Source of the DNA: Escherichia coli
GTDB taxonomy: Bacteria > Pseudomonadota > Gammaproteobacteria > Enterobacterales > Enterobacteriaceae
Length of the DNA: 64,000 nucleotides
Direction: 5' to 3' (one strand)
Assembly (NCBI RefSeq): GCF_022846255.1
Contig: NZ_AP025682.1
Part shown: in pieces, positions 36,705 to 54,697 of the stretch
Layout: each line of letters starts with the position of its first letter
Position numbering within the stretch: position 1 is the first letter of the stretch
Translations under genes and position numbers: made by a program
Notes under the pieces: model-generated
What the model was told of the DNA's origin: nothing
The model's database searches: none
The model's input: only the letters and a program-made list of their open reading frames with translations

Positions 36705-37718
36705 CTAGTCGTAGGATACGGCAAATATGGCTTTGCTTTGGACTTCTCCAGGCTGTAGTGCTTCCTCCTTCACGCGGACATATTTCGCGGTAATCGGGAA
36801 GGTGTACTGATTCTCAATGGCCGCCATTTTAGTTAGTTTGTTCATCAGAGTATCACCCAGCTTTAACGGTGTTGTTGCGTTACCATTATAAATCTGGAAC
36901 CCAACCCCCTTAGCACCATTAAGCGATGTGTTTTTCAGAATGGTTCCACTATCATCCCATTCACCGCGCGCAACTTTAAAAGTCACTGGATTAGTCGTGA
37001 CGTTATAAACACTGTCACAATTTAAAACCAGATCTATAGAACCTGATTTCGTGTTATTGGCAGATTGCATCTCACTTACCGTTGTTTCTGGCATTCTTAT
37101 TTCGTAAATCGGTTGCGAAAAACTACAGGTTGTGGGTTTGTGTTTGATGCTAAATTCTATATTCTGAGTGTAAGAAACATCACTATTTAGTCGCCCAGTA
37201 ACCCAACATAAAAGCCATGATATGATATTATTATTGCAAGAGTTATCTGTTAGTATGCTAATAGCGGGGCGCGGGATGGTTATCTTGTCGATATTGGTGG
37301 TTATAGTATGGTCTACTTTACTCGTTGGCCCAACATATTCTGCCTTAAGAGTGAACGGTTTGGTATTTATCACATCCTGAGTGTTATATTCTTTTGGAGA
37401 AGCACCCAAGGAGTCAGTTCCAGTAGAAACAGGAAAACTACTACTCTCAAGGTTAAATTTCATAAAAATTGATTTCCCCGAATCCGACTCTCTAAGTTCA
37501 ACGATATAATCTTTTAACGGTGTTGCATAATACATTTTATCGCTTGCTGCATTACATGTGAACGTATCGACTAAGTTTGTATGAATTACAGCCGTTACCG
37601 TATCTTGTGCCATATCCAGTTCTATCGTTTGGCTTGCTGTTGTATTAGGCCCCAAGGTACATTTAGCCTGCCCCAAAAAAGGCAAAGCCAGTAAAAACAA
37701 AAACCAATATTTCTTCAT
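36705..37718 (-). CDS. Fimbrial adhesin / minor tip subunit (chaperone-usher pilus)
   Basis: ORF 36705..37739 (TTG-initiated in the track); likely ATG start at MKKYWFLFLLALPFLGQA signal peptide; last gene of the operon; AT-rich codon usage. Confidence 0.6.
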   Translation of the reverse strand: MKKYWFLFLLALPFLGQAKCTLGPNTTASQTIELDMAQDTVTAVIHTNLVDTFTCNAASDKMYYATPLKDYIVELRESDSGKSIFMKFNLESSSFPVSTGTDSLGASPKEYNTQDVINTKPFTLKAEYVGPTSKVDHTITTNIDKITIPRPAISILTDNSCNNNIISWLLCWVTGRLNSDVSYTQNIEFSIKHKPTTCSFSQPIYEIRMPETTVSEMQSANNTKSGSIDLVLNCDSVYNVTTNPVTFKVARGEWDDSGTILKNTSLNGAKGVGFQIYNGNATTPLKLGDTLMNKLTKMAAIENQYTFPITAKYVRVKEEALQPGEVQSKAIFAVSYD

Positions 37719-37729
37719 AAACAAATCCT

Positions 37730-40222
37730 TTAACGACAAATATAAACTTTATTCTCATCAATAACGTTATCAAAGGTAATAGTGCAGAATTGTTCCTGCT
37801 GTTTATTAACCGAGACGCGAATCGACGCGGGAACATCATTGGTGCGAATAAATATCCGACTTCCCTGTCCTACTAAGCCCACATTATTGCCACTTTCATC
37901 TTCAACCTCATAACCAAACGGCAACGGAGAGCCATCAGGTCGTTGGGAGATGAAATACCAGGGCTTGCGTTTATCAGTCTCAAACTGCGTCATCACTACC
38001 GCACCACGATAAGGAACGGTGTTTTTACGGTTACCCAGTAGCGCCACATCGCTTTTACTGTCGGCAATATCCAACATCAACGTATTTTCACGATACGGCG
38101 TCAGGTTGTCATAAATAGCGTAGCCTCTGCTATCCGTGGTCAAGTAACGATATCCCTGCACCGCAGCCCCCTCCAGCCCAGGTGCTTTGACAATGGCAAA
38201 CGTATCGGAAAGTCTGGGAGCCAGTGCCACCCCGTCCGACCACGCGACGAAACCGCCTTGAATATTACCGCTAACCTGTTGATATCTTTTCGACTGGCTA
38301 TAGCTGCCACCAATAGTCGCCAATGGCGCACGCCAGGTCAGGTTTCCACCTGCTGTTGTTTCGCTGCCCTGGTGTTGATGGCTCAAGTTTGCCCCGTAGC
38401 TGAACTGATCGCGGCTCCCCGCTACACCGCTGAGGCTGGTATTATTCGACCGATAGCCGTCTTTATCAAAAGTGGTCGAGTTAGAAACAAATAAATCTCG
38501 TCGTTTTTCAGTGATTCCATCGCCCCACGAGAAGGGAATTGAGAAATATAAGTTAATGCGTCTATCTTCGCGGTTATCTTCGTCGTAGGTCTGGCTAACA
38601 GACAAGGTATAACTAAGGCGTTCCCAGGAGTTCGAATAGCTGAGTTGATAATCTTTCCCTGTCCCGCTGCGTTCCCAATAATCCCGCCATTGACCGCTGA
38701 CCGACAGATATCCCCAATTTTCCGGTAATGACTGGTTTATATTTACAGAAAAGCTGTTCTTACGACCAAAATCGTACTGATAATAGTCGGCGATATCATA
38801 AACTGAGTCATCTTCTCGATTATAACTTTTCCTGTTATTTGCCCTCACGTGATCGTTAAAAGTACGATAATCTCGAGAAGAATAACGCCAGGCCGCCAGC
38901 GAAAATTGCGTTCCACTTTGAGAGAGATATTTGTTCCACGCAATCTGATAACTTTGACCATTAAACACATCACCGTTATCTTGTTCACTGTGGGAATGGG
39001 TAAAATCAACAGATACCGCACCAATCGGTGTATTCCATCCCGTGCCGAGAACAAACGATGAGTAATTATCAGACAACTGCGTGCCAGCATAGAGAGTCAG
39101 CAAATTATTAAGGCCATACTGATAGCTTCCCTGAATAAAATCTGACTGATCGCTGGCTCCCTCAATACGGCTACGTCCGACAGCAAATTCATATTTCGAA
39201 ACGCCCGGTTGCAACATATTTGGTACCGATGAATAAGGTACACGATAACGCGACACCGAACCGTCAGCTTCTTTAACGGTAACTTCCAGATCGGCACCAC
39301 CACCTGCAAGTTGCAAATCATCAATGGCGAATGGACCTGGCGGAACTTCTTTCTGGTAAACCACAAAGCCATTTTGTTCGATAGTGACAAGTGCGTTACT
39401 TTGGGCAACACCACGCACCACAGGCGTAAAATTCTGTTTAGAGTTCGGCAACATCTGCATATCGCGCCAAAGGCGTACACCGCGAAAACGCACGGAGTCA
39501 AAAACATCAGAACCGGTATACATTTCACCAGCACGCAATGTGCCAAGAATATGTGGAATTCCGCGCTCCAGATATAACGTGTTACTCTTCCATTTACCGC
39601 TGTTATCGTCACTTTTCGTATAATTGGCATTTGAATGCAACTGCCAGCCCAGCAGATTCAAACCACTATTCAGATTTAAATAGCTACTTTTATTATCTCC
39701 TCCGTGCTTATAATTACTGTAATACTGACTGGCATAATAAGAAGTATATAATGCGTTAATCCCACGATCCCATGCCTCAGGTGGAACATATCCGCGTTCA
39801 TACTCAACAACATAGGCCTGGGGTACACTCAACTTCAGGTTAAAATGCCCAATATCATAGTCAACGCTACCTCCCTGTACTGCATCCCGAAGAGGTACGC
39901 ATTCTACGCCTTTATCAATATTAATTCCTTCAGTGAGGATACCTATTTGCTTTAACTGCTCCCAAGATAAACATGTCGCATCCGGATCATCTTTAATGTC
40001 GACATTATAGTGTCCGCGCCACTGATTATTCAGGTAAACATCCATATCATAGATACCTGGCATCGGCTTATCACTATCAATATGATAGTCAGAAATTTTT
40101 TCCCCATTTAATCCGCCAATCATAAAATGGGTGTCAAATGTTTCATCTTCCGCCCATGCAAGCGACGTTGCCAACACCGACAGGATAGCCAGCGTAATAG
40201 AATTAAGTTTAGACATAATCAA
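37730..40222 (-). CDS. Fimbrial outer-membrane usher protein
   Basis: 830-aa ORF, size and composition typical of FimD/PapC ushers, between chaperone and adhesin. Confidence 0.85.
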   Translation of the reverse strand: MIMSKLNSITLAILSVLATSLAWAEDETFDTHFMIGGLNGEKISDYHIDSDKPMPGIYDMDVYLNNQWRGHYNVDIKDDPDATCLSWEQLKQIGILTEGINIDKGVECVPLRDAVQGGSVDYDIGHFNLKLSVPQAYVVEYERGYVPPEAWDRGINALYTSYYASQYYSNYKHGGDNKSSYLNLNSGLNLLGWQLHSNANYTKSDDNSGKWKSNTLYLERGIPHILGTLRAGEMYTGSDVFDSVRFRGVRLWRDMQMLPNSKQNFTPVVRGVAQSNALVTIEQNGFVVYQKEVPPGPFAIDDLQLAGGGADLEVTVKEADGSVSRYRVPYSSVPNMLQPGVSKYEFAVGRSRIEGASDQSDFIQGSYQYGLNNLLTLYAGTQLSDNYSSFVLGTGWNTPIGAVSVDFTHSHSEQDNGDVFNGQSYQIAWNKYLSQSGTQFSLAAWRYSSRDYRTFNDHVRANNRKSYNREDDSVYDIADYYQYDFGRKNSFSVNINQSLPENWGYLSVSGQWRDYWERSGTGKDYQLSYSNSWERLSYTLSVSQTYDEDNREDRRINLYFSIPFSWGDGITEKRRDLFVSNSTTFDKDGYRSNNTSLSGVAGSRDQFSYGANLSHQHQGSETTAGGNLTWRAPLATIGGSYSQSKRYQQVSGNIQGGFVAWSDGVALAPRLSDTFAIVKAPGLEGAAVQGYRYLTTDSRGYAIYDNLTPYRENTLMLDIADSKSDVALLGNRKNTVPYRGAVVMTQFETDKRKPWYFISQRPDGSPLPFGYEVEDESGNNVGLVGQGSRIFIRTNDVPASIRVSVNKQQEQFCTITFDNVIDENKVYICR

Positions 40223-40230
40223 TCCCTGAT

Positions 40231-40911
40231 CTATTTGACGGTTTTTACTTTTTCACTCAAATAGTTCCCATGGTCATCAATCAGCGTAATTGTATATTGA
40301 TTGATGGCTAAGGCTGTGGTGATAGTCTTATCTGACCAGGGGGCTAATAACAACGTTTCGTGATTTATTTTTCCACTTCCCATCAACTCAGGAATAGTTA
40401 TCCAGTTTGCGGAGTTGTTTTTGATATTAATACCACCATTGGCATGCTTAATGCTCAGACGACGAAAACTTTCTTTATCTACGCCAGTAAGTCCCTCTGG
40501 GCGGTAGATAAATTTAATACGATTCTGCATGGCGAATTTTATGCCATTCTTATCTTCTAATTCGGGGCAATTAGGTGGGATGTCTAGCACATTAAGGAAG
40601 AATAGGCTTTCGCGATCTTTTGGTAGTGTATTCGCCAATTTTTTGATTTTGAGTTGTTGCCCTTCCCCCCCTTTTACGTGAGCGACCGGTGGCGTCAACA
40701 CAAACGGAACATGAATTTTTTCTGGGGGTAGACTGGTATCGCCATCATCAATCCATGACTGAACCAGGGCGCTACGATTACCTTCATTCATTAACTGAAC
40801 GGTAATCTCTTTTTTCTTTTCTGGATAAATAACACGAGTGCCGTAGATATAGACACCACTCCACGCAGGCGTGACTATGCCGGCCAGCAAGAAGGCTATT
40901 AATTTTTTCAT
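40231..40911 (-). CDS. Periplasmic pilus chaperone (PapD/FimC-like)
   Basis: 226-aa ORF with signal peptide MKKLIAFLLAGIVTPAWSG and chaperone-like N-terminal region. Confidence 0.8.
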   Translation of the reverse strand: MKKLIAFLLAGIVTPAWSGVYIYGTRVIYPEKKKEITVQLMNEGNRSALVQSWIDDGDTSLPPEKIHVPFVLTPPVAHVKGGEGQQLKIKKLANTLPKDRESLFFLNVLDIPPNCPELEDKNGIKFAMQNRIKFIYRPEGLTGVDKESFRRLSIKHANGGINIKNNSANWITIPELMGSGKINHETLLLAPWSDKTITTALAINQYTITLIDDHGNYLSEKVKTVK

Positions 40912-40964
40912 TAAACAATCCTTGTTTGAGAAATCGGCGACCGAAGCCGCCGATAAACACGATA

Positions 40965-41513
40965 TTAATCTGTCACGACAGTCATTGTCAGAGCAGAGTT
41001 AACCGGGCCAGCAGTCACCGCATCACCTGATTGCGCGTATTTCGCACTGAAATTTAGTGTATATTCATTAGAGCTGTTTTTTTCTAACTCAATACTTTTA
41101 TCACCGTCAATCTGTTGAGATTGCCCATCTGCACTCTCATAGTAGACAGCAAAACCAGCACCATTTGGGTTTGCCACAGTATTAATGGTGATATCGCTAC
41201 GATTTGCATCAAACTGACTTCTGGAAAACGTAATTCTGGGAGTCTCATCTCCTGTACATTTGACCGTCAGCGGTACAGTTGTTTTATTTGAATAACCATC
41301 ATAAATATAACCAGCGCTCTTACCATCAAATTGATCAGCACCAATATCGTTCATAGCAATAGTAGCCTGGCTATTTCCGATAAATTGACAAGTAGTTCCA
41401 ACCACATTACCGGTAATAACTAACTCACCCTGTTCACTCCCCTCCTCTGCAAAAGCCCCTGCACTCATAAAAAGAGAAGATAATACTGCAACTGCAATAA
41501 TTGAACGTTTCAT
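40965..41513 (-). CDS. Major fimbrial subunit
   Basis: 182-aa ORF with signal peptide and Thr/Ser/Gly-rich pilin-like composition; first gene of the operon, preceded by about 380 bp of AT-rich DNA. Confidence 0.75.
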   Translation of the reverse strand: MKRSIIAVAVLSSLFMSAGAFAEEGSEQGELVITGNVVGTTCQFIGNSQATIAMNDIGADQFDGKSAGYIYDGYSNKTTVPLTVKCTGDETPRITFSRSQFDANRSDITINTVANPNGAGFAVYYESADGQSQQIDGDKSIELEKNSSNEYTLNFSAKYAQSGDAVTAGPVNSALTMTVVTD

Positions 41514-41841
41514 AGTCTATTCCTTAACTAATTTATTCCAGGTGATCAAGAGTCTTTTTCCTCTCGGAAATGAATTTCGCAAATTACATTTTCTATCGCA
41601 ATGTAAACAATTTGTTTTTGTGATTTAAATCAAATTATCAAAAGCATATAACAAACAAAAACATCTACAAAAAATATTTTCCTTGTTTACTATTCGGCAT
41701 TATTTGATGTCTTTGCAAGGTAAATTAATACGTATAATTAATTGTGGTTTTTTATTTTAAATAAACATCCGCATACTGATAAAAGTGTAGGGCATTGAAT
41801 TATTTATTCTATTTCCAGCCAGAAATAGGCTTTTCAATAGA

Positions 41842-41874
41842 CAAAAAGACCTGACAGCAAGGCCAGGTCTTTTA
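41842..41874 (-). terminator. Terminator downstream of cas6f (bidirectional shape)
   Basis: gacctg-N10-caggtc hairpin flanked by A-run and T-run. Confidence 0.6.
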
Positions 41875-41892
41875 TACATTACAACTTACTAA

Positions 41893-42447
41893 TCAAAACC
41901 AGGGAATAGTGGCGGTTGCGCTTAATCCGTAACTACTAAATTCCCCTTTAACCGGTTCAGTAAGCAAATCACCATGACGGATAAACAGCTTGAACTGCTG
42001 CTGACTCGACAAACTATTCATATTAAGAAAGGGTAAATCGGTCCGCTGTTCAGCCTGCGTCGCCAGTCGCTCAATCGCCTGTTCTTCAGTTAGCCAGCCT
42101 TTTTTCACTGAACGCCTTAACAGACGCTGAGGGTTACTTTTTACCTGTACACGACTTACGACTCGCCAGCCTTTAATTTCAGGTACTAGCGTGACAGGCG
42201 AACATTGGCAGTAATCAGTAAGCCCTTTACGCCACGTAGAGGCTTCAAGTTCTTGCAATGCGGGGGCACTGCCGTGCAAGCGTAAACGCGCTCCCGGCGT
42301 AACATTCACGTCCGGGAAACTCACGCCGATATCACCTTGCCCTCTTGCACCTAATGCCCGATGCAATTTGGCAAATAACGCCGCCATCAACATTTCGCTC
42401 GAAAATTCAGGATCTGGCAGAACGCGGATCTCAAGGTAGTGATCCAT
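41893..42447 (-). CDS. cas6f: Type I-F CRISPR endoribonuclease Cas6f (Csy4)
   Basis: ORF 41893..42489; start placed at MDHYLEIRVLPDPEF; last gene of cas operon. Confidence 0.9.
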   Translation of the reverse strand: MDHYLEIRVLPDPEFSSEMLMAALFAKLHRALGARGQGDIGVSFPDVNVTPGARLRLHGSAPALQELEASTWRKGLTDYCQCSPVTLVPEIKGWRVVSRVQVKSNPQRLLRRSVKKGWLTEEQAIERLATQAEQRTDLPFLNMNSLSSQQQFKLFIRHGDLLTEPVKGEFSSYGLSATATIPWF

Positions 42448-42457
42448 TGGCAGCTCC

Positions 42458-43459
42458 TTATTCCGATTTCTCACCAAAGACACCGCCACGGATCAGCACA
42501 GCCATCACGTAGCGCTGCTGATCAACGTCTGGTTTCATCCCTTTAGTCACCCAATTGTCCAGTAAGGTATAAAAGTCGAGTTTTTCTTTCGGTTGACGGC
42601 AGGCCACACCGCGACTGGTTACAGAACCGTAAGGTTCCACGGCTATAGCCCCCAATTCATCAACCTTTGGATGCCAGGTATCAATGGTACGTAAAGCATT
42701 GCCAATCTTCTGAGAGTGAATACCGGCAATGCCAGCCACCTGGTATAACACGCGACTTTTACTACTGTTGCTGTCGAGTACCAGCTCCTGCGACGGAAAA
42801 ACTTCTTGCCCGGCACCAAGACGAACCTGCGCTTCAACGGTAAGCATCACCCACTCTTTTGCGCTTAATCCTTGCTCTATAATGGCCGCCAGCTGCGTGA
42901 CCGCTGCCTGTCCCTGGTCAAATTGACGTAAAGAGAAGTCATGGCTGTTAAAAGTCCAGGAAGTGTCGTTAGCAGTAACTTTCACCTGGATCTGCTCAGC
43001 ACCAATGCGGTTGCGCCACAGAAAACGACCATTTGCCAGATTCAGCGCATAGCGAAGCGCCAGCTCTTTAAAGCCATGTTCGCTGATGTAACCTTCAATG
43101 ACCCCGGAAAGCGCCTCCTGGTAAGCCATATCATTACATACTGACGGTGTGGATAAATTACCCAGCACACGCAGCGTAAACACCACCTTTAACGTATCCG
43201 CATCTACCGGAAGCGAAGCCACATCCACCCGTTGCAGGTTAGCTTTTTGGATTTCAGCATCCAGTTTTGTGGAGTCACTGGTAATCGTATTTTTCAAGCG
43301 ATTAGAGATAGTTCCGCGAACCGCTTTCTCCTGAATCTCAATGGGTTGCCATACATTTCCTTGCCAGTTACCTGCGTACATTACCGCGTCAGATGTTGCC
43401 AGTTTGCGCTCAAATGCCAGTACCGATGCCGTTTTTATTACTACAGGAGCCTTTGCCAT
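42458..43459 (-). CDS. cas7f: Type I-F Cascade backbone subunit Cas7f (Csy3)
   Basis: 333-aa [36 protein letters not shown]..., position in operon. Confidence 0.9.
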
Positions 43460-43469
43460 AATTATGTCC

Positions 43470-44393
43470 TTATTCTAAATCGTCATATTCATTAAAAGTA
43501 AAATCATCACCAGCTGGCATTGCCGAGCAATAGTAGCCAGTGTCCGTTGTGCGGTAACGCCACATCAGCGGTTGCAAGTCAGTTATGCGATGTAATCCGC
43601 GCCATTCGCCGATGCCATATACCGCTTCGGCAAAAGCAAATGGCGTCACGGTGTCGCGCGCATTTTCAACTTCACCGGGTGCGTAAACAGGAGAAATGCG
43701 TTGGTAGCCACACATTAACGGTACCAGGAAACCAGGCATTGGCTTCGGCTGATATGTCCATTTTGCGCTGTTGTCTTCTGCCGGAGATTCGGCCTGATAT
43801 TTAACGGCAGCAAAATCAAGCCAGGCATCCAGCAATGAGATGTCGGGATGTTGTTGGTGATGTTCAGCCAGCCATTCACTGCGATCGTAAAGCGCATAGC
43901 CAGGCATTAAACGCCAGATGATTTTACGCAGTTGCTTTTCATCTTCAGGCGCATGAAAAAGCTGTGGTTCGCGCATGTCAACAATGCTGCCGCCCGCCAG
44001 TTTGTGGCTCTGGCAGAGCATTTTCAGATGGTCACACAGAGCTTTTCTGCCATATTCACCATTGGTGATTTCCCCTTCACATTCAATGAGCAAAGATACC
44101 GTCAGATGCATACGGCCCTCTTCATTGAACGAAGCGGTTTTACCTTCTCTGGTTAGTGGGTTACGGGTGAGAGCAAACTGAAAATACCGCCCAGAGCTAT
44201 ATGCCTGAATATGTTGTTCATGGCTAACTACCGCGCAACCGTCAAAACTTACGCCAAAATCATCCGCCACTTTGCGAGAAAGCGCATGAACATAGCCGAG
44301 AAAATGGGTCATCGCCGGGAATCCCCAGGTCAACCCGGAGACGGCGTTAGCGTTTTCGATACGTATATGGGGTAACAAGAGCAGATAACTCAT
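43470..44393 (-). CDS. cas5f: Type I-F Cascade subunit Cas5f (Csy2)
   Basis: 307-aa ORF, operon position between csy1 and csy3, overlaps csy1 stop by 4 bp. Confidence 0.88.
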
Positions 44394-45697
44394 TTCAGCG
44401 CCTCCTGCAAAACAGCTTCCATTTCACGCATCCGTTGAGCGAACAGAGACTGGCTGCGCCATTCTCTTTGCTCGACAGCGCCCACGTCGAAACTGGATTT
44501 TTTCAGGCGATAGTTGAGCCAGCGCGCAAAATCATCGGCCACCGCCCCCTGCCAGTCGTTTTTCTCCCGCTCCAGTTTGAAAACCTCATCGGACAGGCTT
44601 CGCCACGGATCCAGCCAAAGCTGCTGATGGCGAGGTAAATCTTGCGATTGCGCTGACCATCCCTGCCATTTTTCTTGCTGAAAAGCGGATGCCTGCATGA
44701 ACAGCAGATCGATCAACTCATCAATATATTTCGCCCGCGCAGTTCGGATATGAACATTATTTATGTCAACCTTCAACAGGTAAGTCATCCGGGCGATAAT
44801 GCCCGAAGCCGCCCTATTGAAATCGCCGCGTAAGGCAAAAATACTGAGCATGTTTTGTGGTGCGCGATCCAGCGTCGCCCAGGTAGGCGGCATTGACGGC
44901 AACAGCCAGACGCGCCCCCCACGCACACTATTGAGCAATGAAATATTTTGCGGTTTTGTGCCTCCGAAATGCATTTCAGCAAGATTCGGGAAACGAATAT
45001 CTGGCTGTGAGTGCCATTTACCTGCTTTGTGCGCTTCGCGAATGGCTTTCGATTCCTCACTAAAGCGCACGGCGGTTAGCTTTTCATACATCGCCTGCGC
45101 CAGTGAACTGGAAAACAGTGGGCATAAGAGGTGATAACCATCCGCAACAGGGAAATAGATTTGTTTTGCCAGTTTATGGCTGGCAGGCCGTCCAGTTGTC
45201 CATGCCTGGCTAAACCCAGCTACCCACTGCTCCAGTTGCGCTTTATCCTCTGCAAACGTACTTAATGCCTGATAATCACCACGCTTCAGGCTGGCAAGCA
45301 GTGAATCTCCGTTCACATCAGTTTGTAGCAACTTTGCGACGTCAAGTGCAGCGGCGTTACCAATCGCGTCAGTAGCGACATTCGCCAACGATGCCGTGTT
45401 TAAATAGCTTTCGTTAGCGGAGGTTTCCAGATAAAAGCTACTGGCTTTAGAATCACCATGACTGAATTTAGCGCCATGAGTGACTAATTTGATTTGCCCG
45501 GCACGCTTTGCCGCATCCGTTAACCAGTGACGAGGCAGGTAGCGTGCCTCGAGTTCCTGCCGCTCCTGAGCGATGACGCTGGCATCCTCGCCCTGTTCCA
45601 GTCGCTTTGTTGCTTCTTTTTCAAAGGCCTCGACTTTGGGTTGCCTTCGCGAAGCGATATAGTCAGTGATAAATTGTATTAGCGCCGTTTTTTCCAT
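44390..45697 (-). CDS. cas8f: Type I-F Cascade large subunit Cas8f (Csy1)
   Basis: 435-aa ORF, AAGGAG RBS upstream of ATG, first gene of csy cluster. Confidence 0.88.
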   Translation of the reverse strand: MEKTALIQFITDYIASRRQPKVEAFEKEATKRLEQGEDASVIAQERQELEARYLPRHWLTDAAKRAGQIKLVTHGAKFSHGDSKASSFYLETSANESYLNTASLANVATDAIGNAAALDVAKLLQTDVNGDSLLASLKRGDYQALSTFAEDKAQLEQWVAGFSQAWTTGRPASHKLAKQIYFPVADGYHLLCPLFSSSLAQAMYEKLTAVRFSEESKAIREAHKAGKWHSQPDIRFPNLAEMHFGGTKPQNISLLNSVRGGRVWLLPSMPPTWATLDRAPQNMLSIFALRGDFNRAASGIIARMTYLLKVDINNVHIRTARAKYIDELIDLLFMQASAFQQEKWQGWSAQSQDLPRHQQLWLDPWRSLSDEVFKLEREKNDWQGAVADDFARWLNYRLKKSSFDVGAVEQREWRSQSLFAQRMREMEAVLQEALK

Positions 45698-45743
45698 CTC
45701 GGCTCCTTTCGTTAATCCATCAAATTGAAGTTGCTCCCTGACT

Positions 45744-45827
45744 TCACTGAAAAATCTCCGTAGCCCAACCAGGCTTCAGTACAACGACGCATACAGCAAA
45801 AGGGACAACACCCGTGGTGATAATCAT
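45744..45827 (-). CDS. Hypothetical 27-aa hydrophobic mini-ORF (MIITTGVVPFAVCVVVLKPGWATEIFQ); candidate Cre-repressed toxin or upstream leader peptide
   Basis: ATG preceded by AGGTGAG at 6-nt spacing; not in ORF track (too short); lies between the Cre-like target site and csy1. Confidence 0.2.
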   Translation of the reverse strand: MIITTGVVPFAVCVVVLKPGWATEIFQ

Positions 45828-45837
45828 GGATAGCTCA

Positions 45838-45871
45838 CCTAGAGGTATCTACGTTTTAATCTAGTAAAATC
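45838..45871 (+). promoter_or_regulatory. Putative Cascade binding site (CC PAM + 11-nt seed match to the psi-spacer), overlapping a putative minus-strand promoter and RBS
   Basis: cc-tagaggtatct at 45838..45850 is identical to the first 11 nt of the psi-spacer at 45969..45979; I-F PAM is 5'-CC on the non-target strand. Confidence 0.45.
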
Positions 45872-45940
45872 CATGCAATAACCAATAGTGATATTACCAT
45901 GCATGAAATATTTGCCACACAATGATTTAAAAACTAACAT

Positions 45941-46014
45941 TCACGCACTGCCGTTGGCAGCTTAGAAATAGAGGTATCTCCGGATACGGACTTGTAAACT
46001 GCCGTACAGGCAGC
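45941..46014 (+). ncRNA. Degenerate mini-CRISPR (psiR-psiS-psiR), CreA/CreR-like crRNA-resembling RNA gene
   Basis: psiR1 tcacgcactgccgttggcagcttagaaa (intact 8-nt 5' handle, shortened loop); 25-nt psi-spacer; psiR2 gtaaactgccgtacaggcagc (intact Cas6f hairpin, lacks 3' handle); orientation opposite to cas genes; possible promoter TTGCCA-17-TAACAT at 45912..45940. Confidence 0.5.
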
Positions 46015-46024
46015 CCGCGCCCCT

Positions 46025-49000
46025 TCACGGGGCGCGGTACACACCTAACCAGGGGTGATAACGCCAGTCATCGACCACATCTTCTTCACTGACGGGTACT
46101 CTCACCTCAGCAAACTTTTCCCCAACGCTTGCTATCTCACAACCTTGCTTATCAGCTAAATTCAACAAAACGTGTTGGTAATCCATCACGCCCCAGCAAG
46201 CGACACCGCTGGCGCATCTCACCTCTTCTCGCCTGAAATTCCCTTGCGCTTTACGCTCGTTGTCGCCCGTACGGGAATAGAAACGCGCTTCGCTTTCTTC
46301 ATCATCCATATGCAGAAAAAATACCGCCTCCGGCAAAGGGGAATAACGAAATGGCGTCTGGCGCTGTATCCAGCCGTTCCAGCTTAGCGGTGCACGCCAC
46401 CATTGCGCCGCCACCACATGTTTGCTTTTACTGCTCATCAATTCGGCGGATAAACGACTATGTTCTAGCTCCGCCAGTTTGTTGGCATTATTGGCAGACA
46501 GGATCCGCGGCAAGGCGTTAATCGTCCGGTAGTCCGCGATCGGAATCAGTTCGCAAATATCGTGGCTATTCAGCAAGTGTTCTTTTGTTTCGAAACCAGG
46601 CTTACAAAATGCGGGGGCTTTTTTCTGCAATGATTTGATATTGCTACGCAAAATAACCAGATTCTCACTGGTCGGCACATTTCTACGGTGGCGCTGAATA
46701 CGTCCGGCAAATTGAATTATCGAACGCATGGAGCTTGGTTCGATAATTCCCCAATCCGCATCCCAGTCACGCCCCACTTCTATAACCGATGTCCCCAACA
46801 CCACAAACAGATGGTGCGATTCCGGACGGTTATGTAAGGCATCTGCGATATCTTCGTTGTTCCAGAAATCGAGTTCGTTATGACGGGTAAAAGCGCGGTC
46901 CAGTCGCTTCTCAATATCTGAACGCACCGCCAGCGGGTGTCGGGAGTGGTAAACACAATAATGAATACAAACATTTTCTGGTGAAGGAATGGCAATCAGG
47001 GCTTTGGTCACTGCAACCAGTGGATTGATATTCGCGAAGCGCACCAGGCCCAGCGAAACGGTTTTACCGCTTTCGTGTAGCTGGCGATGCGCCTGATGCA
47101 ACTTCAGCATTTGCGTATGCACCGTCTGGGCCACACTTTCGGTAACATCCTGGATTGCAACTGATGCAGATGAAATCGAAGCAACACGCCCGAAATGCAG
47201 CCGCTCTTTTTCAGCCAGCATTACCGCCCGCCTGGCAACAAATTTTGTATGCGCATCGCGAAAGGCCGCTCCATCGCTAATTTGCGTGGCATCAGCATCG
47301 TTTTCGTCAAACCAGGCACAGCAAATATTGACGGGCCTGCCGTTGGTACCACAAGACGCCTGCCACATTTTACGCCCGGCAAGATAAGCCGCGAACAGCG
47401 CCTGAATCAGGCCTGGCGGAAGCGTCGCCGAAGAGAGTAACACCCGCGTTCCCAGCATCCCGGCCCAGTTCATCAAACGACATACCGCATGAAGATCAGC
47501 AATATCAAAGTCGTCGGGTTCGTCGAGCACTAAATCGCTGGTTAACAGACGCAACATCGCCGGAAGCTGTTTCCCGCCACGCACACCCTCGGTCGCGGAA
47601 ATAAGATGATCAATTGTCGCGACCAGAATCGGCGCGCTCACTAACGCCTTAAGTTTGCTGTCATCCTTCAACCATTTTTCCAGCGCCCCGGTATGCAGGC
47701 TGCCTTCGTACTTAACGAACTGTTGCTCCTCTGCCGGCGACTCTTGCGAGGCACTTCCACAATCATTGTCTATTTTTTCCTGCTGCCAGAGCTGTTTAAC
47801 TGCCGCCGAACCAATTAATACCGCCAGCTCATCCTCACCGAGTCCAAGTCGACTACGCAGAGCATCGCCGGTTTGCAAAGTCAGCGTACGCAATCCCAGC
47901 GCGACGGTAAAACGGCACCCTTCCCGCTCATCGGCAAGCGCATACATAATGCGGGCGTTCGCAAAGGTTTTACCGCACCCCGTCGAGGCCATATTAACGC
48001 CGAAAAATCCCTCCTCCCGGCTTCGTTCACGTAACGCTCGCGCCACATCCGAGGCTTTATCCTGCCAGCGATATTTCGCATCTGTAGCTCGCTGGCTAAA
48101 ACCTTTATGTCGGGCAATTGCCGGAAGAGAAGCCCGTGTGCGCATCAGCTGCCGCCCAAGCAAAAACGCATGATGTGCGACGCCGACCAGGTGCTCGTCC
48201 ACCCGTTGTTTGAGTGCGCCACTTTGCCTATCGCTATTTGCCCAGACGATATAATCCGGCTCCTGCCATTTTTGCTGCGCATCGCTTGAGGAATAGTAAT
48301 GATCGGCAAGCATCAGGCAAAAACGCGCCATATGTGAGGGGAACAACTGTTCCATCAGCCCGTATGTCTTTAAACCGAGCGCGTTACTTGCCCGGCGGGA
48401 AATCTGATGTGCTTTTTCTCGCCAGCTAGCACTCTGAAGCGGTGTTCCAGCCGGAAATTGCCAGACGTGCGCAAAATCCTGTTGTAACCAGTCATCTCTG
48501 CGGTGGTTAACGGCATTCCAGTCAGCATTAAGTTGCCTTTCCAGCCAACTTTCACACCCTTTGCAAGATTGTTCCGGTTGTGGCGAAAGATTCTCCGGAA
48601 TTCGATGATGGGAAAGGATCAGCCAACCTACCGTTTTGGCTAGCGGTTGCAGCGAAGTAAATGGGCTATCTGAAAATTGAGGCGTGTCTTTTAGCAGGCG
48701 TTCCAGAATCGCAGATTCATCATCTGCCGTAAGTTCGCCAAGCTTCGCCAGCCACACATCGTCGGGCCGATCACCGACAAACGCCTGAAAGAGCCGCAGT
48801 GAGATCCATTCATGTCGGTATGGTTGATAACTGCGGGCATTCTTTTGGGTCAGGCTTTGCTGAAAGCTGCGTCCGGATTTTCCAAAATCATGAAATAACC
48901 CGGCGATGGCTGCCAGCAGCGCAATGCTTTCCGCACATTGCCAGCGGTTTTCTTCCTTGTTCACCAGGCTGGTTTGCGTTGTGCGATTTGTGGGAACGCG

Positions 49001-49258
49001 CCCCTGAGCATTAAAACGACGAATATTACCCACAATCCACATCAACTCAATTTGTCCATTCTTCTTTAGCCAGTGACATGCCACTGCGGTATTTCGCCTG
49101 GCAGTTTTGCGCAGTAAACGGCGGAGTGTATTAACGCCTTCCAGAGTAATCACTGTTTGCCATGCGGCATCACCTGTACGTTCAGCAAACTGATCAATAA
49201 TACGGCAGCTTTCCACGCGGGCGTTTTTTGTACAGCGCGAGATAATCAGAACATTCAT
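46025..49258 (-). CDS. cas3: Type I-F Cas2-Cas3 fusion (Cas2 domain + HD nuclease + SF2 helicase)
   Basis: 1077-aa ORF; N-terminal Cas2-like region; HD motif LLAAIAGLFHDFGK; overlaps cas1 stop by 4 bp. Confidence 0.92.
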   Translation of the reverse strand: MNVLIISRCTKNARVESCRIIDQFAERTGDAAWQTVITLEGVNTLRRLLRKTARRNTAVACHWLKKNGQIELMWIVGNIRRFNAQGRVPTNRTTQTSLVNKEENRWQCAESIALLAAIAGLFHDFGKSGRSFQQSLTQKNARSYQPYRHEWISLRLFQAFVGDRPDDVWLAKLGELTADDESAILERLLKDTPQFSDSPFTSLQPLAKTVGWLILSHHRIPENLSPQPEQSCKGCESWLERQLNADWNAVNHRRDDWLQQDFAHVWQFPAGTPLQSASWREKAHQISRRASNALGLKTYGLMEQLFPSHMARFCLMLADHYYSSSDAQQKWQEPDYIVWANSDRQSGALKQRVDEHLVGVAHHAFLLGRQLMRTRASLPAIARHKGFSQRATDAKYRWQDKASDVARALRERSREEGFFGVNMASTGCGKTFANARIMYALADEREGCRFTVALGLRTLTLQTGDALRSRLGLGEDELAVLIGSAAVKQLWQQEKIDNDCGSASQESPAEEQQFVKYEGSLHTGALEKWLKDDSKLKALVSAPILVATIDHLISATEGVRGGKQLPAMLRLLTSDLVLDEPDDFDIADLHAVCRLMNWAGMLGTRVLLSSATLPPGLIQALFAAYLAGRKMWQASCGTNGRPVNICCAWFDENDADATQISDGAAFRDAHTKFVARRAVMLAEKERLHFGRVASISSASVAIQDVTESVAQTVHTQMLKLHQAHRQLHESGKTVSLGLVRFANINPLVAVTKALIAIPSPENVCIHYCVYHSRHPLAVRSDIEKRLDRAFTRHNELDFWNNEDIADALHNRPESHHLFVVLGTSVIEVGRDWDADWGIIEPSSMRSIIQFAGRIQRHRRNVPTSENLVILRSNIKSLQKKAPAFCKPGFETKEHLLNSHDICELIPIADYRTINALPRILSANNANKLAELEHSRLSAELMSSKSKHVVAAQWWRAPLSWNGWIQRQTPFRYSPLPEAVFFLHMDDEESEARFYSRTGDNERKAQGNFRREEVRCASGVACWGVMDYQHVLLNLADKQGCEIASVGEKFAEVRVPVSEEDVVDDWRYHPWLGVYRAP

Positions 49259-50244
49259 TGATCAGCCTTAGCCAGTGCCTGGGCAGTTTCCTGCAAAGAG
49301 GTGATCATGACATCCAGCGCATCCGTTTGTTGAAAGATATTGATGCAGCGTAGACGAAACTCCTGGGCATCTTCACCTGCCATCGCGGCGATAAATGCTT
49401 GCGGCATCACAAGGGCATCTTTAATCAGATCGGCAAGGTCAAAAACCAGCCCGCCGCGACGTGTTTTACCGTGCATTACTGCTAAACCGTGCGGGATCCC
49501 GGTTACCCACGCCGCCACTGCTGCCAGTCCATAAGCCAGATAATTCCCTTGATCGAGGAAGCGGTTGGCCATATCAATACCACCGCCCCGTTTTGCGCGA
49601 GTGAAATCGCCATACCCCACTGTTTGACTGACCATTTTGTATAACGCTTTAGTCAATTTGGCCTCTACGAGCATAAGCTGCGTATGGTTTTCTGCCGCGT
49701 CTATTTCTTCACGAGTACGATTCAGGAGGGTATGCAGCGCATTAACATCAGGTTGAAATGCGTGTTCACGCTGCATTTTCGAGCTGGACCAGTGCTTATC
49801 GATATGTGTCAGGCGGATTAACTGAAAACGTTTCGCGGCGGCAAGTCGTTTATCTTCAGCAAACCAAAAAGAAACCCACTGCTGGAGATACTCTGTAGGG
49901 CGATATTCACTTTGTGGGCTGAGCCAGGAGACATCAACATCCACTTCATTTGCCGAATACAGCGGCGTGCCATCCGTACCACAAAAGCCCACCATCACCC
50001 CGGCATGAGCAAATTCACGCATCGCCGCCTGAGTAACGGAAGTTCCCATTCCCAACATCAATGCCGTGGTATTCGCAATGGGGATATTCCAGTAGTACGA
50101 CTCTTTACCTTCGCTGGTGACATACTCCACCCGCCCACCATTCACCTGTACCCGGCATTTTTCCAGATAATAAATATTGGCGCGTTTGGAGTGGAGAATG
50201 GTTTTGAGATCGGAAGGCGTGAGGTAATTCGAAGACATAAACAC
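49255..50244 (-). CDS. cas1: Type I-F CRISPR integrase Cas1
   Basis: 329-aa ORF upstream of cas2-3, first gene of cas operon. Confidence 0.9.
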   Translation of the reverse strand: MFMSSNYLTPSDLKTILHSKRANIYYLEKCRVQVNGGRVEYVTSEGKESYYWNIPIANTTALMLGMGTSVTQAAMREFAHAGVMVGFCGTDGTPLYSANEVDVDVSWLSPQSEYRPTEYLQQWVSFWFAEDKRLAAAKRFQLIRLTHIDKHWSSSKMQREHAFQPDVNALHTLLNRTREEIDAAENHTQLMLVEAKLTKALYKMVSQTVGYGDFTRAKRGGGIDMANRFLDQGNYLAYGLAAVAAWVTGIPHGLAVMHGKTRRGGLVFDLADLIKDALVMPQAFIAAMAGEDAQEFRLRCINIFQQTDALDVMITSLQETAQALAKADQ

Positions 50245-50400
50245 ATCCTGTGATTATTTTATATTTGAAGGTATTGGGCTTAGTACAGCATTGATTTATG
50301 TGCTGAAAATTGATTTCTGTCGCAATTATTACGATTGTTATTGTATGCTGAAGCTAATGGTTTGAAGTTGAGAGCGTCATGATATGACCAAACGTCTACC

Positions 50401-51268
50401 ATTATCGTATTGTGAAACTACCTGTACGGCAGTGAACCGCGTAGAGCTGCTGCGCAAACTCGACACTCATTTCTAAGCTGCCTGTACGGCAGTGAACCCT
50501 CGTTCATCAAGGTGCTCAAAGCTTGACATTTTCTAAGCTGCCTGTACGGCAGTGAACGCCAAGAACGCTGTTACCGCTTCCCTGTGCGCTTTCTAAGCTG
50601 TCTGTACGGCAGTGAACCCAGATTGCCGAAAACATCGCCTTTGATGAACTTTCTAAGCTGCCTGTACGGCAGTGAACGGGCGCGGTGTCGTCCAGGATTT
50701 GGAGGCAACTTTCTAAGCTGCCTGTACGGCAGTGAACAACAGGTCGTCCAGCGCATCCCACGGATCCGGTTTCTAAGCTGCCTGTACGGCAGTGAACATC
50801 GCGCACACGCAGTCTTACATTTGCCACCATTTCTAAGCTGCCTGTACGGCAGTGAACGAGTGATTATTATGGCCCAATCGGACGATGACTTTCTAAGCTG
50901 CCTGTACGGCAGTGAACCTCCACCCGTGGTAAGCAGAAAGGGCCGTAACTTTCTAAGCTGCCTGTACGGCAGTGAACTGATCTGTTGCGATACTGACAGT
51001 ATCGTTAGCTTTCTAAGCTGCCTGTACGGCAGTGAACTGTTTTTTTGACGTGTAAACCGGGCGGTTTTTTTTCTAAGCTGCCTGTACGGCAGTGAACATC
51101 TCCGTATTTACTGTCCTCCCTGCTATCCATTTCTAAGCTGCCTGTACGGCAGTGAACTGCCAGTTTCGAAAACGTGCAGCAAATGCAGTTTTCTAAGCTG
51201 CCTGTACGGCAGTGAACTACCTTAATTTGAAATGAACCTTTGCCGCATATTTCTAAGCTGCCTGTACG
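50401..51268 (-). CRISPR. Type I-F CRISPR array B: 15 repeats, 14 spacers
   Basis: same 28-bp repeat at exact 60-bp period, 32-bp spacers; degenerate terminal repeat at 50401..50428 next to cas1; repeat at 50581 has a stem substitution. Confidence 0.97.
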
Positions 51269-51431
51269 GCAGTGAACTCAAATACTACACGTTTAGCTCG
51301 TTGTTGATAAAGAAAAATCATCTCATTTTCCTGCTGCCACCCTTTTTTATTCTTACCTTCCAGCACCATTAATTATCAACAACTTACCTTCACCTCCAAA
51401 AATAGGGTTTTCACCGTTCCCCCCTACAAAC

Positions 51432-51465
51432 AAAAAGTCCGTAACCTCTTTCGAGATTACGGACT
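51432..51465 (-). terminator. Rho-independent terminator after clpA
   Basis: gtccgtaa...ttacggac hairpin followed on minus strand by TTTTGTTT. Confidence 0.65.
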
Positions 51466-51489
51466 TCACCAACCTACCTAACAATTAGA

Positions 51490-53766
51490 TTAATGCGCTG
51501 CTTCCGCCTTGTGCTTTTGTGCACTCTGGAATCCGTAAGTCAGCTCATTTTTATCTTTATCCAGCGCAACCGTCACCTGACCGCCGTCCACCAGCGAACC
51601 AAACAACAGTTCGTTGGCGAGCGGTTTTTTCAGGTTGTCCTGGATGACACGCGCCATCGGACGTGCGCCCATTGCCCGGTCGTAACCTTTCTCGGCCAGC
51701 CAGTTACGCGCTTCCTGGCTCACTTCCAGAGAAACACCTTTCTGATCCAGCTGAACCTGCAACTCGACGATGAATTTATCCACTACCTGATGGATCACGT
51801 CGGTGGAGAGATGATCGAACCAGATAATGTTGTCGAGACGGTTACGAAACTCCGGCGTAAAGATCTTCTTGATCTCTTCCATCGCATCAGTGCTGTTGTC
51901 CTGGTGGATAAGACCAATCGATTTACGCTCAGTTTCTCGTACCCCAGCGTTGGTGGTCATCACCAATACCACGTTACGGAAGTCCGCTTTGCGTCCGTTG
52001 TTATCGGTCAGCGTACCGTTGTCCATCACCTGCAACAGAATATTGAACACGTCCGGATGCGCTTTCTCGATTTCGTCCAGCAGCAGTACCGCGTGCGGAT
52101 GCTTGATGACCGCATCGGTCAGCAGCCCCCCCTGATCAAAACCAACGTATCCCGGAGGCGCACCAATCAGACGGCTGACGGTATGGCGTTCCATATACTC
52201 GGACATATCAAAGCGCAGAAGCTCAATGCCCAAAGCTTTCGAAAGCTGTACCGTCACCTCTGTTTTCCCGACCCCGGTAGGACCGGCAAACAGGAACGAA
52301 CCGACCGGTTTATGTTCGTGACCTAAACCTGCACGCGCCATCTTAATGGCTTCAGTCAGCGCCTCAATGGCTTTATCCTGACCGAAGACCAGCATTTTCA
52401 GGCGATCGCCGAGGTTTTTCAGGGTATCGCGGTCACTCTGCGAAACACTCTTCTCTGGAATGCGCGCAATACGGGCCACCACGGACTCAATATCCGCCAC
52501 ATTAACGGTTTTCTTGCGTTTGCTTACCGGCATCAGGCGTGCGCGAGCGCCCGCTTCGTCGATAACGTCAATGGCTTTATCCGGCAGATGACGATCGTTA
52601 ATGTATTTCACCGCCAGCTCTACCGCTGCACGCACCGCTTTTGCGGTATAACGCACGTCGTGGTGCGCTTCATACTTCGGTTTCAGGCCATTGATGATCT
52701 GTACGGTTTCTTCTATCGACGGTTCAGTAATATCAATTTTCTGGAAGCGACGCGCCAGAGCACGGTCTTTCTCGAAAATGTTGCTGAACTCCTGATAGGT
52801 TGTCGAACCAATTACGCGGATTTTACCGCTGGAGAGCAACGGTTTAATCAGGTTAGCCGCATCGACCTGGCCACCAGACGCTGCACCCGCACCGATAATG
52901 GTGTGGATCTCATCAATAAACAGGATGCTGTTAGTGTCCTGCTCCAACTGCTTGAGCAACGCTTTAAAACGTTTTTCAAAGTCGCCGCGATATTTTGTGC
53001 CCGCTAACAGAGAACCGATATCGAGAGAGTAAATCGTACAGTCAGCCATCACTTCCGGCACATCGCCCTGAACAATTCGCCAGGCAAGCCCCTCCGCAAT
53101 CGCGGTTTTACCGACACCAGACTCCCCCACCAGCAGCGGGTTGTTTTTACGGCGACGGCAGAGAACCTGAATAGCACGCTCCAGCTCCTTCTCACGACCA
53201 ATCAGTGGGTCGATTCCGCCCACTCGCGCAAGCTGATTCAGGTTCGTCGTGAAATTCTCCATACGTTCCTCCCCACCAGCTTGTTCTTCGCTGTTTGGCT
53301 GGCTGCCAGGATCAGAAGACTGTGTCGGCTCGTCTTTACGCGTGCCATGAGAGATAAAGTTCACCACATCGAGACGGCTGACTTCATGTTTGCGCAACAG
53401 ATATGCCGCCTGCGACTCCTGTTCGCTAAAGATAGCGACCAGAACGTTTGCACCGGTAACCTCATTGCGACCGGAGGACTGGACATGGAAGACCGCACGT
53501 TGCAGTACACGCTGAAAACTCAGCGTCGGCTGTGTGTCGCGCTCCTCTTCACTGGCAGGCAGAACGGGTGTGGTTTGTTCAATAAAGGCTTCCAGTTCCT
53601 GACGGAGCGCAACCAAATCCACAGAACACGCTTCCAGCGCCTCCCGGGCAGATGGGTTACTGAGCAGCGCCAGTAACAAGTGCTCGACGGTCATAAACTC
53701 ATGACGGTGCTCGCGCGCTCTGGCGAAAGCCATATTTAAACTGAGTTCCAGTTCTTGATTGAGCAT
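51490..53766 (-). CDS. clpA: ATP-dependent Clp protease ATP-binding subunit ClpA
   Basis: ORF 51490..53781; start at [23 protein letters not shown] (758 aa); two AAA+ modules. Confidence 0.96.
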
Positions 53767-53796
53767 AGGCACCTCCCCCAATTTTTATGCCTGCAT

Positions 53797-54117
53797 TCAG
53801 GCTTTTTCTAGCGTACACAGCAATGGATGCTCATTCTCCCTCGCGTACTTGTTCACCATCGCCACTTTGGTTTCTGCAACCTCAGCGGTAAAGACTCCGC
53901 AAATGGCCTTCCCCTGGTAGTGAACAGCGAGCATCAATTGCGTTGCACGTTCTACATCATAAGAAAAGAATTTTTGTAACACGTCAATAACAAACTCCAT
54001 CGGAGTATAATCATCATTGACTAATATCACTTTATACATAGATGGCGGTTTTAGCGCGTCGCGAACTTTTTCTTCCGCCAGTTGATCAAAGTCCAGCCAG
54101 TCGTTCGTTTTACCCAT
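53797..54117 (-). CDS. clpS: ClpA adaptor protein ClpS
   Basis: 106-aa [46 protein letters not shown]... Confidence 0.96.
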
Positions 54118-54439
54118 TGTCAGTTATCATCTTCGGTTACGGTTATCGGCAGAACGCCCTGCCGCTGACAAGAGCTTATTTGCCTGACCAATCTACTCCA
54201 CATGATAGATAACTATCATCTATCGTTGGCATCAGCGACATCTGTCACATTCCTGTCAATAGCGTTAACTGCTTCAAATTTTTGATTCATACCTGCCCCC
54301 TGGCCCCTGTCAAATGCTTGACGGCTCGCCCTAATTCTCTAAATTGTATTTCTAGAGTTGGCGAGGTTTTGAACAGCCCCCTCTCTGACCCCGGTTTATT
54401 CCATCTTACTTGTATAAGATTTGCGAAGGATGTCGAAGC

Positions 54440-54664: not shown

Positions 54665-54697
54665 CTCTTCTGTCTCATTGTGTACATCCTAAAGGCA

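Follow-up and report, generated by a model that had tools for sequence, protein, structure and literature searches.

We analysed a stretch of 64,000 nt of Escherichia coli DNA (hereafter, the window), in which clpA is 99.2% identical to that of E. coli genomes and which carries a type I-F CRISPR-Cas locus on the minus strand. The subject of the analysis was the 327-bp intergenic region separating cas2-3 from csy1 (45698-46024), which holds a degenerate mini-CRISPR array on the plus strand and a 27-codon open reading frame (ORF) on the minus strand (45744-45827). We concluded that this region is probably a CreR-like autorepression circuit, with the ORF lying in the ~150-nt 5' leader of csy1-cas6f, and not a toxin gene. 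A first-pass annotation had proposed that the ORF encodes a membrane-active toxin of a CreTA-like addiction module and, as a fallback, that it is an upstream leader ORF of csy1, with a Cre-like RNA autoregulating csy expression.

Among 5,426 complete E. coli genomes, 238 carried the intergenic region, in every case flanked by cas3f and csy1, and nothing was annotated under it in RefSeq in any of the 238. The version that we call the IHE3034 type accounted for 201 of them (84%), including IHE3034, UTI89, APEC O18, NC101 and the type strain ATCC 11775. The mini-array of the window begins with pseudo-repeat 1 (CACTGCCGTTGGCAGCTTAGAAA, 45943-45968, plus strand), composed of the hairpin CTGCC-GTT-GGCAG and then the 8-nt 5' handle CTTAGAAA. 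It is followed by a 25-nt pseudo-spacer (TAGAGGTATCTCCGGATACGGACTT, 45969-45993, plus strand) and by pseudo-repeat 2 (GTAAACTGCCGTACAGGCAGC, 45994-46014, plus strand), which differs from the first 21 nt of the array repeat by two mismatches, is missing the 3' handle portion, and is invariant in 10 haplotypes. The loop of pseudo-repeat 1 was variable and its stem was kept in window-type haplotypes; the fifth pair was lost in the IHE3034 type, and one mismatch was present in Escherichia ruysiae. CRISPR-DR4 was the only Rfam family matched, by the main array and, below threshold, by pseudo-repeat 1 (45946-45968, 22.7 bits); no known RNA family was found on the leader.

The predicted target of the crRNA (CRISPR RNA)-like RNA lies at 45838-45853 on the plus strand. 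It consists of a CC protospacer adjacent motif (PAM) at 45838-45839 and protospacer positions 1-14 at 45840-45853, the plus strand at 45838-45850 reading CC and then TAGAGGTATCT. Pseudo-spacer positions 1-11, 13 and 14 match the target in the window, and the PAM with the seed occurred once in the 64 kb, against 0.10 occurrences expected. When 11 haplotypes were compared, the CC PAM was kept and positions 1-5, 7-11 and 13 were paired in all of them, and mismatches in positions 1-13 were confined to positions 6 and 12. Furthermore, position 5 covaried, both partners having changed (G:G to T:T) in 503025-type E. coli and again in E. ruysiae. The bases at positions 6 and 12 are flipped out by the I-F Csy complex and left unused for pairing, a point also stressed in papers on Pseudomonas aeruginosa. 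Because the mismatches follow this I-F signature and position 5 covaries, the comparison gives good evidence that the guide-target pairing is functional.

The region thus holds a degenerate mini-CRISPR beside a cas operon, with the handle CTTAGAAA and a Cas6 hairpin, and a partial PAM-proximal match of its pseudo-spacer to a PAM-flanked site in the same locus, which are the features of the CreA/CreR class. The Escherichia module is a new member of this known class; no description of it was found in the main texts of the papers searched, a search that did not cover supplementary catalogues. It resembles CreR, the concept of Cas-regulating crRNA-like RNAs (Liu et al. 2023, 10.1101/2023.03.03.530964), in having a two-repeat degenerate mini-array inside the cas locus that is transcribed opposite to cas3, with the 5' handle kept in pseudo-repeat 1 and the hairpin in pseudo-repeat 2. 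The pseudo-spacer is likewise short, its PAM-proximal partial match leaves out positions 6 and 12, the CC-flanked site stands upstream of cas8f/csy1, and repression would occur without cleavage. It differs from CreR in that the target is followed by a ~145-nt leader, whose conservation exceeds that of the flanking cas genes when the most divergent loci are compared, and in that repression is here a prediction.

We examined where transcription of csy would begin. The 330-bp gap is also found in E. coli LF82, for which reverse transcription PCR yielded no product spanning cas2/3-csy1 but showed expression of csy1 in log phase as well as in stationary phase, and csy1-cas6f was concluded to be its own transcription unit (Almendros et al. 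2012, PMC3506596). Since csy1 is expressed there without a cas2/3-csy1 co-transcript, the csy promoter must be inside the intergenic region. A hexamer scan of the haplotype alignment revealed, at the level of consensus matches, two positionally conserved promoter-like pairs in the csy sense on the minus strand, which span 45858-45918 upstream of the target: GTGGCA (45918-45913), 16 nt, TAATAT (45896-45891), and TTGGTT (45885-45880), 16 nt, TAGATT (45863-45858). The same scan found no positionally conserved pair downstream of the target, and no intrinsic terminator was found between the ORF and csy1. Since conserved hexamers lie only upstream, no terminator intervenes and LF82 behaved as described, the promoter was placed upstream of the ORF, and therefore the ORF was placed in the csy1-4 leader. 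With either pair, transcription would start at the target or just upstream of it. These results, together with the I-F signature of the pairing, make the fallback of the first-pass annotation the proposal that fits the evidence best. We also weighed TTCAGT-16-TTCAAT as a csy promoter within the leader and rejected it; its -10 hexamer is TTCGAC in the IHE3034 type, and no pair is conserved in position there. For the mini-array, a consensus scan gave a sigma-70-like promoter, TTGCCA-17-TAACAT (45912-45940, plus strand), one site against 0.8 expected, from which transcription would begin approximately at the start of pseudo-repeat 1. The ATGTTA of this site is invariant in the haplotype alignment.

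From these features we infer the following circuit. The plus-strand promoter would transcribe the degenerate mini-array, and Cas6f would cut at both pseudo-repeats, as their conserved hairpins suggest, leaving a crRNA-like RNA in which the 25-nt guide is flanked by the normal handle CUUAGAAA and by a 3' hairpin. Csy carrying this RNA would bind the CC-flanked site at 45838-45853 through the PAM-proximal match of 13-14 nt, a pairing that sequence and covariation show. A match this short leads in I-F systems, where R-loop formation licenses cleavage, to binding without cleavage by Cas2-3, and by analogy with homologous I-F modules the Escherichia match would also be too short to license it. The minus strand is non-template for csy, and it is with this strand that the crRNA would pair; this is the orientation in which Cascade and dCas9 block elongation best in CRISPR interference (CRISPRi). 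Bound at or just downstream of the csy1-cas6f promoter, Csy would lower its own transcription, a CreR-type negative feedback that would ease once Csy is titrated by crRNAs or anti-CRISPRs. The Shine-Dalgarno (SD)-like motif and start codon may permit some translation of the leader, with a product that does not appear to be what selection preserves, and the conserved leader nucleotides may serve to tune csy1 expression, possibly as an RNA helix or as a site to which a protein binds.

The ORF itself was found just as the first-pass annotation had described it. Its ATG is at 45827-45825 and its TGA at 45746-45744, 46 nt before the csy1 ATG, and it encodes the 27-aa peptide MIITTGVVPFAVCVVVLKPGWATEIFQ, of which residues 1-17 read as hydrophobic. 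It is divergent from the mini-array. The SD-like AGGTGAG (45834-45840, read 45840-45834 on the minus strand) precedes the ATG by six nucleotides (CTATCC), and, as had been claimed, overlaps the PAM and seed-match site, the overlap being the CC PAM and protospacer base 1: the A-G-G of the motif is complementary to protospacer base 1 (45840) and to the PAM. This part of the motif is therefore forced, because the PAM and the first protospacer base dictate these bases. We also estimated the chance expectation for such an ORF with 5000 dinucleotide-preserving shuffles of the 327-nt intergenic region, counting ORFs on either strand. At least one ATG ORF of at least 27 codons appeared in 82% of shuffles, and one of that length with an SD-like tetramer 5-13 nt upstream in 26%. 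The real intergenic region contains eight mini-ORFs of 20-36 aa (10 are listed when csy1 and cas2-3 are counted). The ORF at 45744-45827 is not beyond chance expectation. A frame-2 ORF (MRRC..., 26 aa) with tandem CGT arginine codons was considered and rejected; it has no SD, and the arginine codons are missing in the IHE3034 type. CGT is a common codon in E. coli.

The peptide and the nucleotides were then compared across haplotypes. In six sampled haplotypes the 27-codon ATG frame was intact, with few and conservative replacements (I/M/L, T/A, V/A, A/T, G/C). The IHE3034-type genomes, however, have no ATG, with TTTGTGTGATC where the window has CCATGATTATC, and an extra A inserted after codon 14 shifts the frame of the C-terminal half, so that the hydrophobic C-terminal part is lost. 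The only SD-proximal frame over the same codons there is a GTG-started one of 37 aa, MITTGVVPFAVYVSCTEAMLGYGDFSVKSGSNFDLMD, with a different C-terminal half and a stop 15 nt before csy1 instead of 46 nt. In E. ruysiae, codon 21 is changed from TGG to TGA, truncating the product to 20 aa. The SD-like motif appeared as AGGTGAA, AGGAGAG or AGGATGA in other haplotypes, and the distance from the PAM to the csy1 ATG was fixed at 145-147 nt across haplotypes. Variable sites were distributed 5:3:7 over the three codon positions, which is indistinguishable from uniform. Exact look-up of four peptide variants in a collection of 15 billion proteins gave no match, and scans of three possible peptides with NCBIfam and PADLOC gave no match at E up to 10. 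On this comparison the 27-aa peptide is not conserved.

The most conserved part of the leader was 45698-45788 on the minus strand, which takes in the last 15 ORF codons, stop codon included, and the 46 nt preceding the csy1 ATG. It showed 89-100% identity in all haplotypes compared, whereas the lowest identities in the same comparisons were 64% for the promoter-containing stretch 45854-45942, 31% for the stretch from SD to ATG and 74% for the first 500 nt of csy1. The last value came from loci L001 and L003, where the leader stretch was more conserved than csy1. Between the window and E. ruysiae, the ORF and leader were 95% identical, and cas2-3, csy2, csy3 and cas6f were 86-90% identical. Because all three codon positions are constrained, synonymous sites as much as the others, selection appears to act on RNA or DNA and not on the peptide.

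Loci in which the effector complex has been lost naturally were examined as well. In E. coli TUM13066 (L027), csy3 is split by IS100, and the intergenic region is intact and the same as in other IHE3034-type genomes; therefore loss of Csy is tolerated with the IHE3034-type version, which argues against toxicity. In E. coli SZQ1 (L028), csy3 is fused to a truncated cas3f by a single deletion that took out csy1, csy2 and the module, which fits either model, with a toxin or with none. In E. ruysiae CP112983 (L153), csy1 is interrupted by an IS3-family element with about 110 codons lost, and the same locus has the nonsense codon in the ORF, the stem mismatch in pseudo-repeat 1 and changes in otherwise invariant leader positions; these lesions fit toxin inactivation or plain divergence. 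With the peptide not conserved, the 5:3:7 distribution, the constraint at the nucleotide level, the lack of a protein family and the intact module in the csy3::IS100 strain, the membrane-active toxin of an addiction module, as first proposed, found no support.

Several points weigh against the autorepression reading. The csy transcription start on which it relies is predicted from consensus promoter matches. All three I-F cas3-csy1 modules that have been dissected held a toxin, namely CreT of Acinetobacter sp. WCHA45 (PMC10097628), CreP of A. baylyi (10.1101/2024.01.05.574328) and CreT1/2 of P. aeruginosa (10.64898/2026.06.02.729485), and the P. aeruginosa mini-array, which we take to be the same element, was at first read as purely autoregulatory. 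An SD-like motif and a start codon stand at a similar distance from the PAM in three versions that are only 31-46% identical over that stretch (AGGTGA-N7-ATG, AGGAGA-N12-GTG and AGGA-N9-ATG). It is not obvious why an untranslated leader should be conserved above coding sequence. Moreover, the nonsense codon and stem mismatch of E. ruysiae occur in the sole window-type locus with a dead csy1, as a toxin model would also predict, and the evidence from TUM13066 concerns the IHE3034-type leader and not the version in the window.

The alternative that survives best, which we consider unlikely, is that the leader is a small RNA toxin like CreT. The SD and start codon would recruit ribosomes and the RNA would poison translation once repression by Csy is lost, the mini-array would be the CreA antitoxin that makes Csy addictive, and csy1-4 may be read through from the same promoter. 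The layout is that of the CreTA modules of WCHA45 and P. aeruginosa, where a cas3-csy1 gap of 330-400 bp contains a divergent creA, then a partial target flanked by CC, then an SD and a mini-ORF pointing towards csy1, and in those systems, too, the mini-ORF acts as RNA, as does every CreT characterised. The SD and start codon are kept in the three divergent versions, the constraint on leader nucleotides exceeds that on the flanking genes in the most divergent loci, the module comes and goes among close relatives as CreTA does in P. aeruginosa and Acinetobacter, and the csy1-null locus of E. ruysiae is altered at otherwise invariant leader positions. CreTA1 and CreTA2 of P. aeruginosa (Wang et al. 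2026, 10.64898/2026.06.02.729485) belong to the same subtype and occupy the same cas2-3/csy1 slot. The PAM is the same, mismatches likewise fall at positions 6 and 12, the pseudo-spacer has 26 nt in CreA2 against 25 nt here, an SD and small ORF lie downstream of the target towards csy1, and the module occurs in only part of otherwise near-identical loci. In the WCHA45 module (Nat Commun 2023, PMC10097628), a cas3-csy1 gap of ~400 bp with a divergent creA is combined with a target downstream of the creT transcription start and with an SD and mini-ORF that act as RNA and not as peptide, which we count as a likeness.

What characterizes creT in these systems was, however, found in Escherichia only as an SD-like motif and a start. 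CreT of P. aeruginosa has a 15-nt mini-ORF with two consecutive proline codons and a GC-rich hairpin, all required and conserved, and its target is ~30 bp upstream of the -35 element; in WCHA45, a 33-bp mini-ORF is conserved among homologues, with the start codon in a required 5-bp hairpin. Unlike these families, in which the mini-ORF stays identical (at 15 nt in P. aeruginosa and at 33 bp in Acinetobacter), the Escherichia haplotypes have none in common (27 aa, 37 aa frameshifted, 20 aa truncated). We found no tandem rare or proline codons, no GC-rich stabilizing hairpin, no terminator and no equivalent of the conserved hairpin element in the leader, so that a toxin transcript would have no place to end before csy1. 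The window-type SD is predicted to pair with codons 3-4, and TUM13066 is viable with an intact module.

It is rather doubtful that the ORF is a functional upstream ORF whose translation, and not its product, tunes csy1, either through translational coupling or by opening the RNA helix that codons 7-12 are predicted to form with the stop region. Such a reading draws on the SD and start codon kept in all haplotypes, on the fixed distance between the PAM and the csy1 ATG, and on a possible long-range helix of 16 bp predicted with RNAalifold (45730-45809, minus strand). Its 5' arm, GUUGUCCCUUUUGCUG (45809-45794), lies within ORF codons 7-12 and its 3' arm, CAGUGAAGUCAGGGAGCAAC (45749-45730), lies across the ORF stop. 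The helix was 100% paired in 9 of 9 haplotypes, and three one-sided changes all fell on G-U pairs and kept the pairing (U-G to C-G, U-G to U-A and G-U to A-U). Two of the three are the V-to-A and A-to-T replacements of the ORF, so that nonsynonymous changes of the peptide are those that keep the predicted helix paired. On the other hand, no two-sided covariation was present in the nine haplotypes and the shuffle control was uninformative (439/500). Folding scores were also weak, with single-sequence z-scores of -1.3 and -0.56 for the 95-nt core and a whole-leader fold no better than shuffles (z +0.43). The helix is thus possibly real, and we take it only as a lead. The position of the stop, 46 or 15 nt before csy1 depending on the haplotype, means that no single coupling geometry is conserved.

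A mixed scheme appears less probable still. The window-type frame at 45744-45827, or its leader RNA, would be a toxin held off by the crRNA-like RNA and would share the Csy-repressed promoter with csy1-4, and the IHE3034 type would be a detoxified derivative that is only autoregulatory. If it were true, the Escherichia I-F system would carry a CreTA-like guard with a toxin unlike any known CreT, doubling as the csy1-4 leader.

Finally, that the 27-aa hydrophobic peptide is itself a membrane-active toxin de-repressed on loss of Csy, in a CrePA-like module with a peptide of the type I kind, is very improbable, since its real ORF, SD and position under the guide-controlled site, its hydrophobic residues 1-17, the intact frame in six haplotypes and the early stop in the csy1-null locus of E. 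ruysiae are outweighed by the lost ATG and shifted frame in 84% of E. coli I-F loci, a spread of changes over codon positions that is indistinguishable from uniform, the chance expectation for an ORF of this size and its absence from the protein collection, RefSeq annotation, NCBIfam and PADLOC. Small hydrophobic type I toxins of E. coli include Ibs, Ldr, ShoB, TisB and Hok. The predicted peptide resembles these in size and hydrophobic character but matches no NCBIfam model, is not conserved and is accompanied by no identified antisense RNA feature. CrePA of A. baylyi ADP1 (Shu et al. 2024, 10.1101/2024.01.05.574328) also occupies the cas3-csy1 intergenic slot and is a precedent for a toxin that is a peptide and not an RNA, because CreP is a protein toxin repressed by CreA-guided Csy. 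CreP, however, is a KilAC-domain protein of 103 aa with 50 conserved homologues, whereas the Escherichia frame encodes 27 aa, has no homologues or family match, and is broken in the majority of related loci. The hydrophobic peptide probably does not represent a gene.

The cas2-3/csy1 intergenic region is an accessory module, because it is absent from closely related I-F loci. In the I-F loci closest to it outside Escherichia, those of Pseudocitrobacter, Klebsiella oxytoca, Citrobacter koseri and C. amalonaticus, the module was absent and the cas2-3/csy1 gap was at most 17 nt, and it was also absent from a locus with a Csy1 91% identical to that of the window, where cas2-3 and csy1 overlap. Outside E. 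coli it was found in E. whittamii, Escherichia sp. E1V33, E. ruysiae and a few metagenome contigs. Contigs encoding the exact Csy1 of the window had an identical intergenic region. A metagenome scan with the pseudo-spacer pattern returned only four loci, three that are identical to the 503025 type and one with a new haplotype. This pattern of presence and absence resembles that of the cas3-csy1 modules reported in Acinetobacter (PMC10097628) and P. aeruginosa (10.64898/2026.06.02.729485).

Published work called the type I-F system of E. coli constitutive, with a separate csy transcription unit. If the autorepression reading is true, the module would explain how this system is regulated: Csy would set its own level through a crRNA-like guide, and csy expression would respond to crRNA load and to anti-CRISPRs. 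The 330-bp gap would then not be an inert spacer, which matters when I-F genes are cloned or deleted in uropathogenic and avian pathogenic E. coli. With a mostly negative result for the peptide, interest shifts to the guide-target pair and to the unusually conserved leader RNA; if the leader proved toxic, it would be a fourth, unrelated type of toxin recruited to the cas3-csy1 slot.

Other observations concerned the guide. In Escherichia sp. E1V33 the guide-target match reaches position 15. The pseudo-spacer carries an imperfect palindrome, GTATC TCCG GATAC (45974-45987), and beyond the seed it is invariant in all haplotypes though unmatched to the target; no second target for its PAM-distal half was found in the window. 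The intergenic region had no match in phage and plasmid collections. In viral contigs, a handle-plus-seed pattern gave 120 chance matches, the pattern being too short, none with a correctly placed repeat hairpin, and with a longer pattern the matches were I-F arrays of the ordinary kind and one solitary repeat whose seed match was only 6 nt, so that no phage mimic of the guide was found by these patterns. The solitary I-F-like repeat, TTCACTGCCGCACAGGCAGCTTAGAAA followed by TAGAGGCG..., is in IMGVR_UViG_2901292590_000001 (L152, about 5113-5129), and is probably unrelated or an RNA anti-CRISPR.

In the leader, 45698-45788 holds three xGGAG motifs (ACGGAG, AGGGAG and AAGGAG), the last of which is the csy1 SD (45708-45703, minus strand), and these might be CsrA-type sites. 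The same stretch contains a short GTG-started frame behind an SD (MKSGSNFNLMD), which stops 14 nt ahead of the csy1 ATG. The locus has a mosaic structure. When 44390-45697 of the window was compared with L001, L003 and L014, the 5' end of csy1 was 96% identical to the IHE3034 type and 74% identical to the 503025 and SCPM types, and the intergenic promoter stretch was 96% identical to E. whittamii and 66% to IHE3034. This mosaic points to recombination breakpoints on both sides of the leader and to two deeply divergent alleles of the csy1 N-terminal part.

A perfect GC-rich hairpin of 9 bp, CCGCGCCCC / GGGGCGCGG, surrounds the cas2-3 stop codon (46015-46037) and accompanies a Cas2-3 C-terminus of ...YRAP in place of ...FRNL. 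Similar hairpins were found in Pseudocitrobacter (L005), L021, L023 and E. ruysiae (L153) but not in other E. coli haplotypes. L021 (Logan SRR7532984) encodes a Csy1 75% identical to that of the window, and its cas2-3/csy1 gap is only 78 nt (1422-1500). This gap contains a lone antisense repeat-like hairpin, GCTGCTTGTACAGCAG, after a GC hairpin, with no pseudo-spacer, target or leader, and may be either what is left of the module or a forerunner of it.

The remaining genes of the minus-strand I-F locus are cas1 (49255-50244) and cas2-3 (46025-49258) upstream of the intergenic region, and csy1 (cas8f; 44390-45697), assigned by PF09611 and the RefSeq annotation of homologous loci, followed by csy2, csy3 and cas6f, which end at 41893. 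The CRISPR array, with repeat GTTCACTGCCGTACAGGCAGCTTAGAAA, is at 50408-51287, and no second array was seen within 38000-56000. In other E. coli I-F loci that were examined, tRNA-Ser is ~110 nt from cas6f and a second CRISPR array lies beyond it. In the window, a chaperone-usher fimbrial cluster (36496-41892) lies between tRNA-Ser (36496-36583) and cas6f, with genes for a fimbrial usher (37730-40222), a chaperone (40231-40911) and a subunit (40965-41513).

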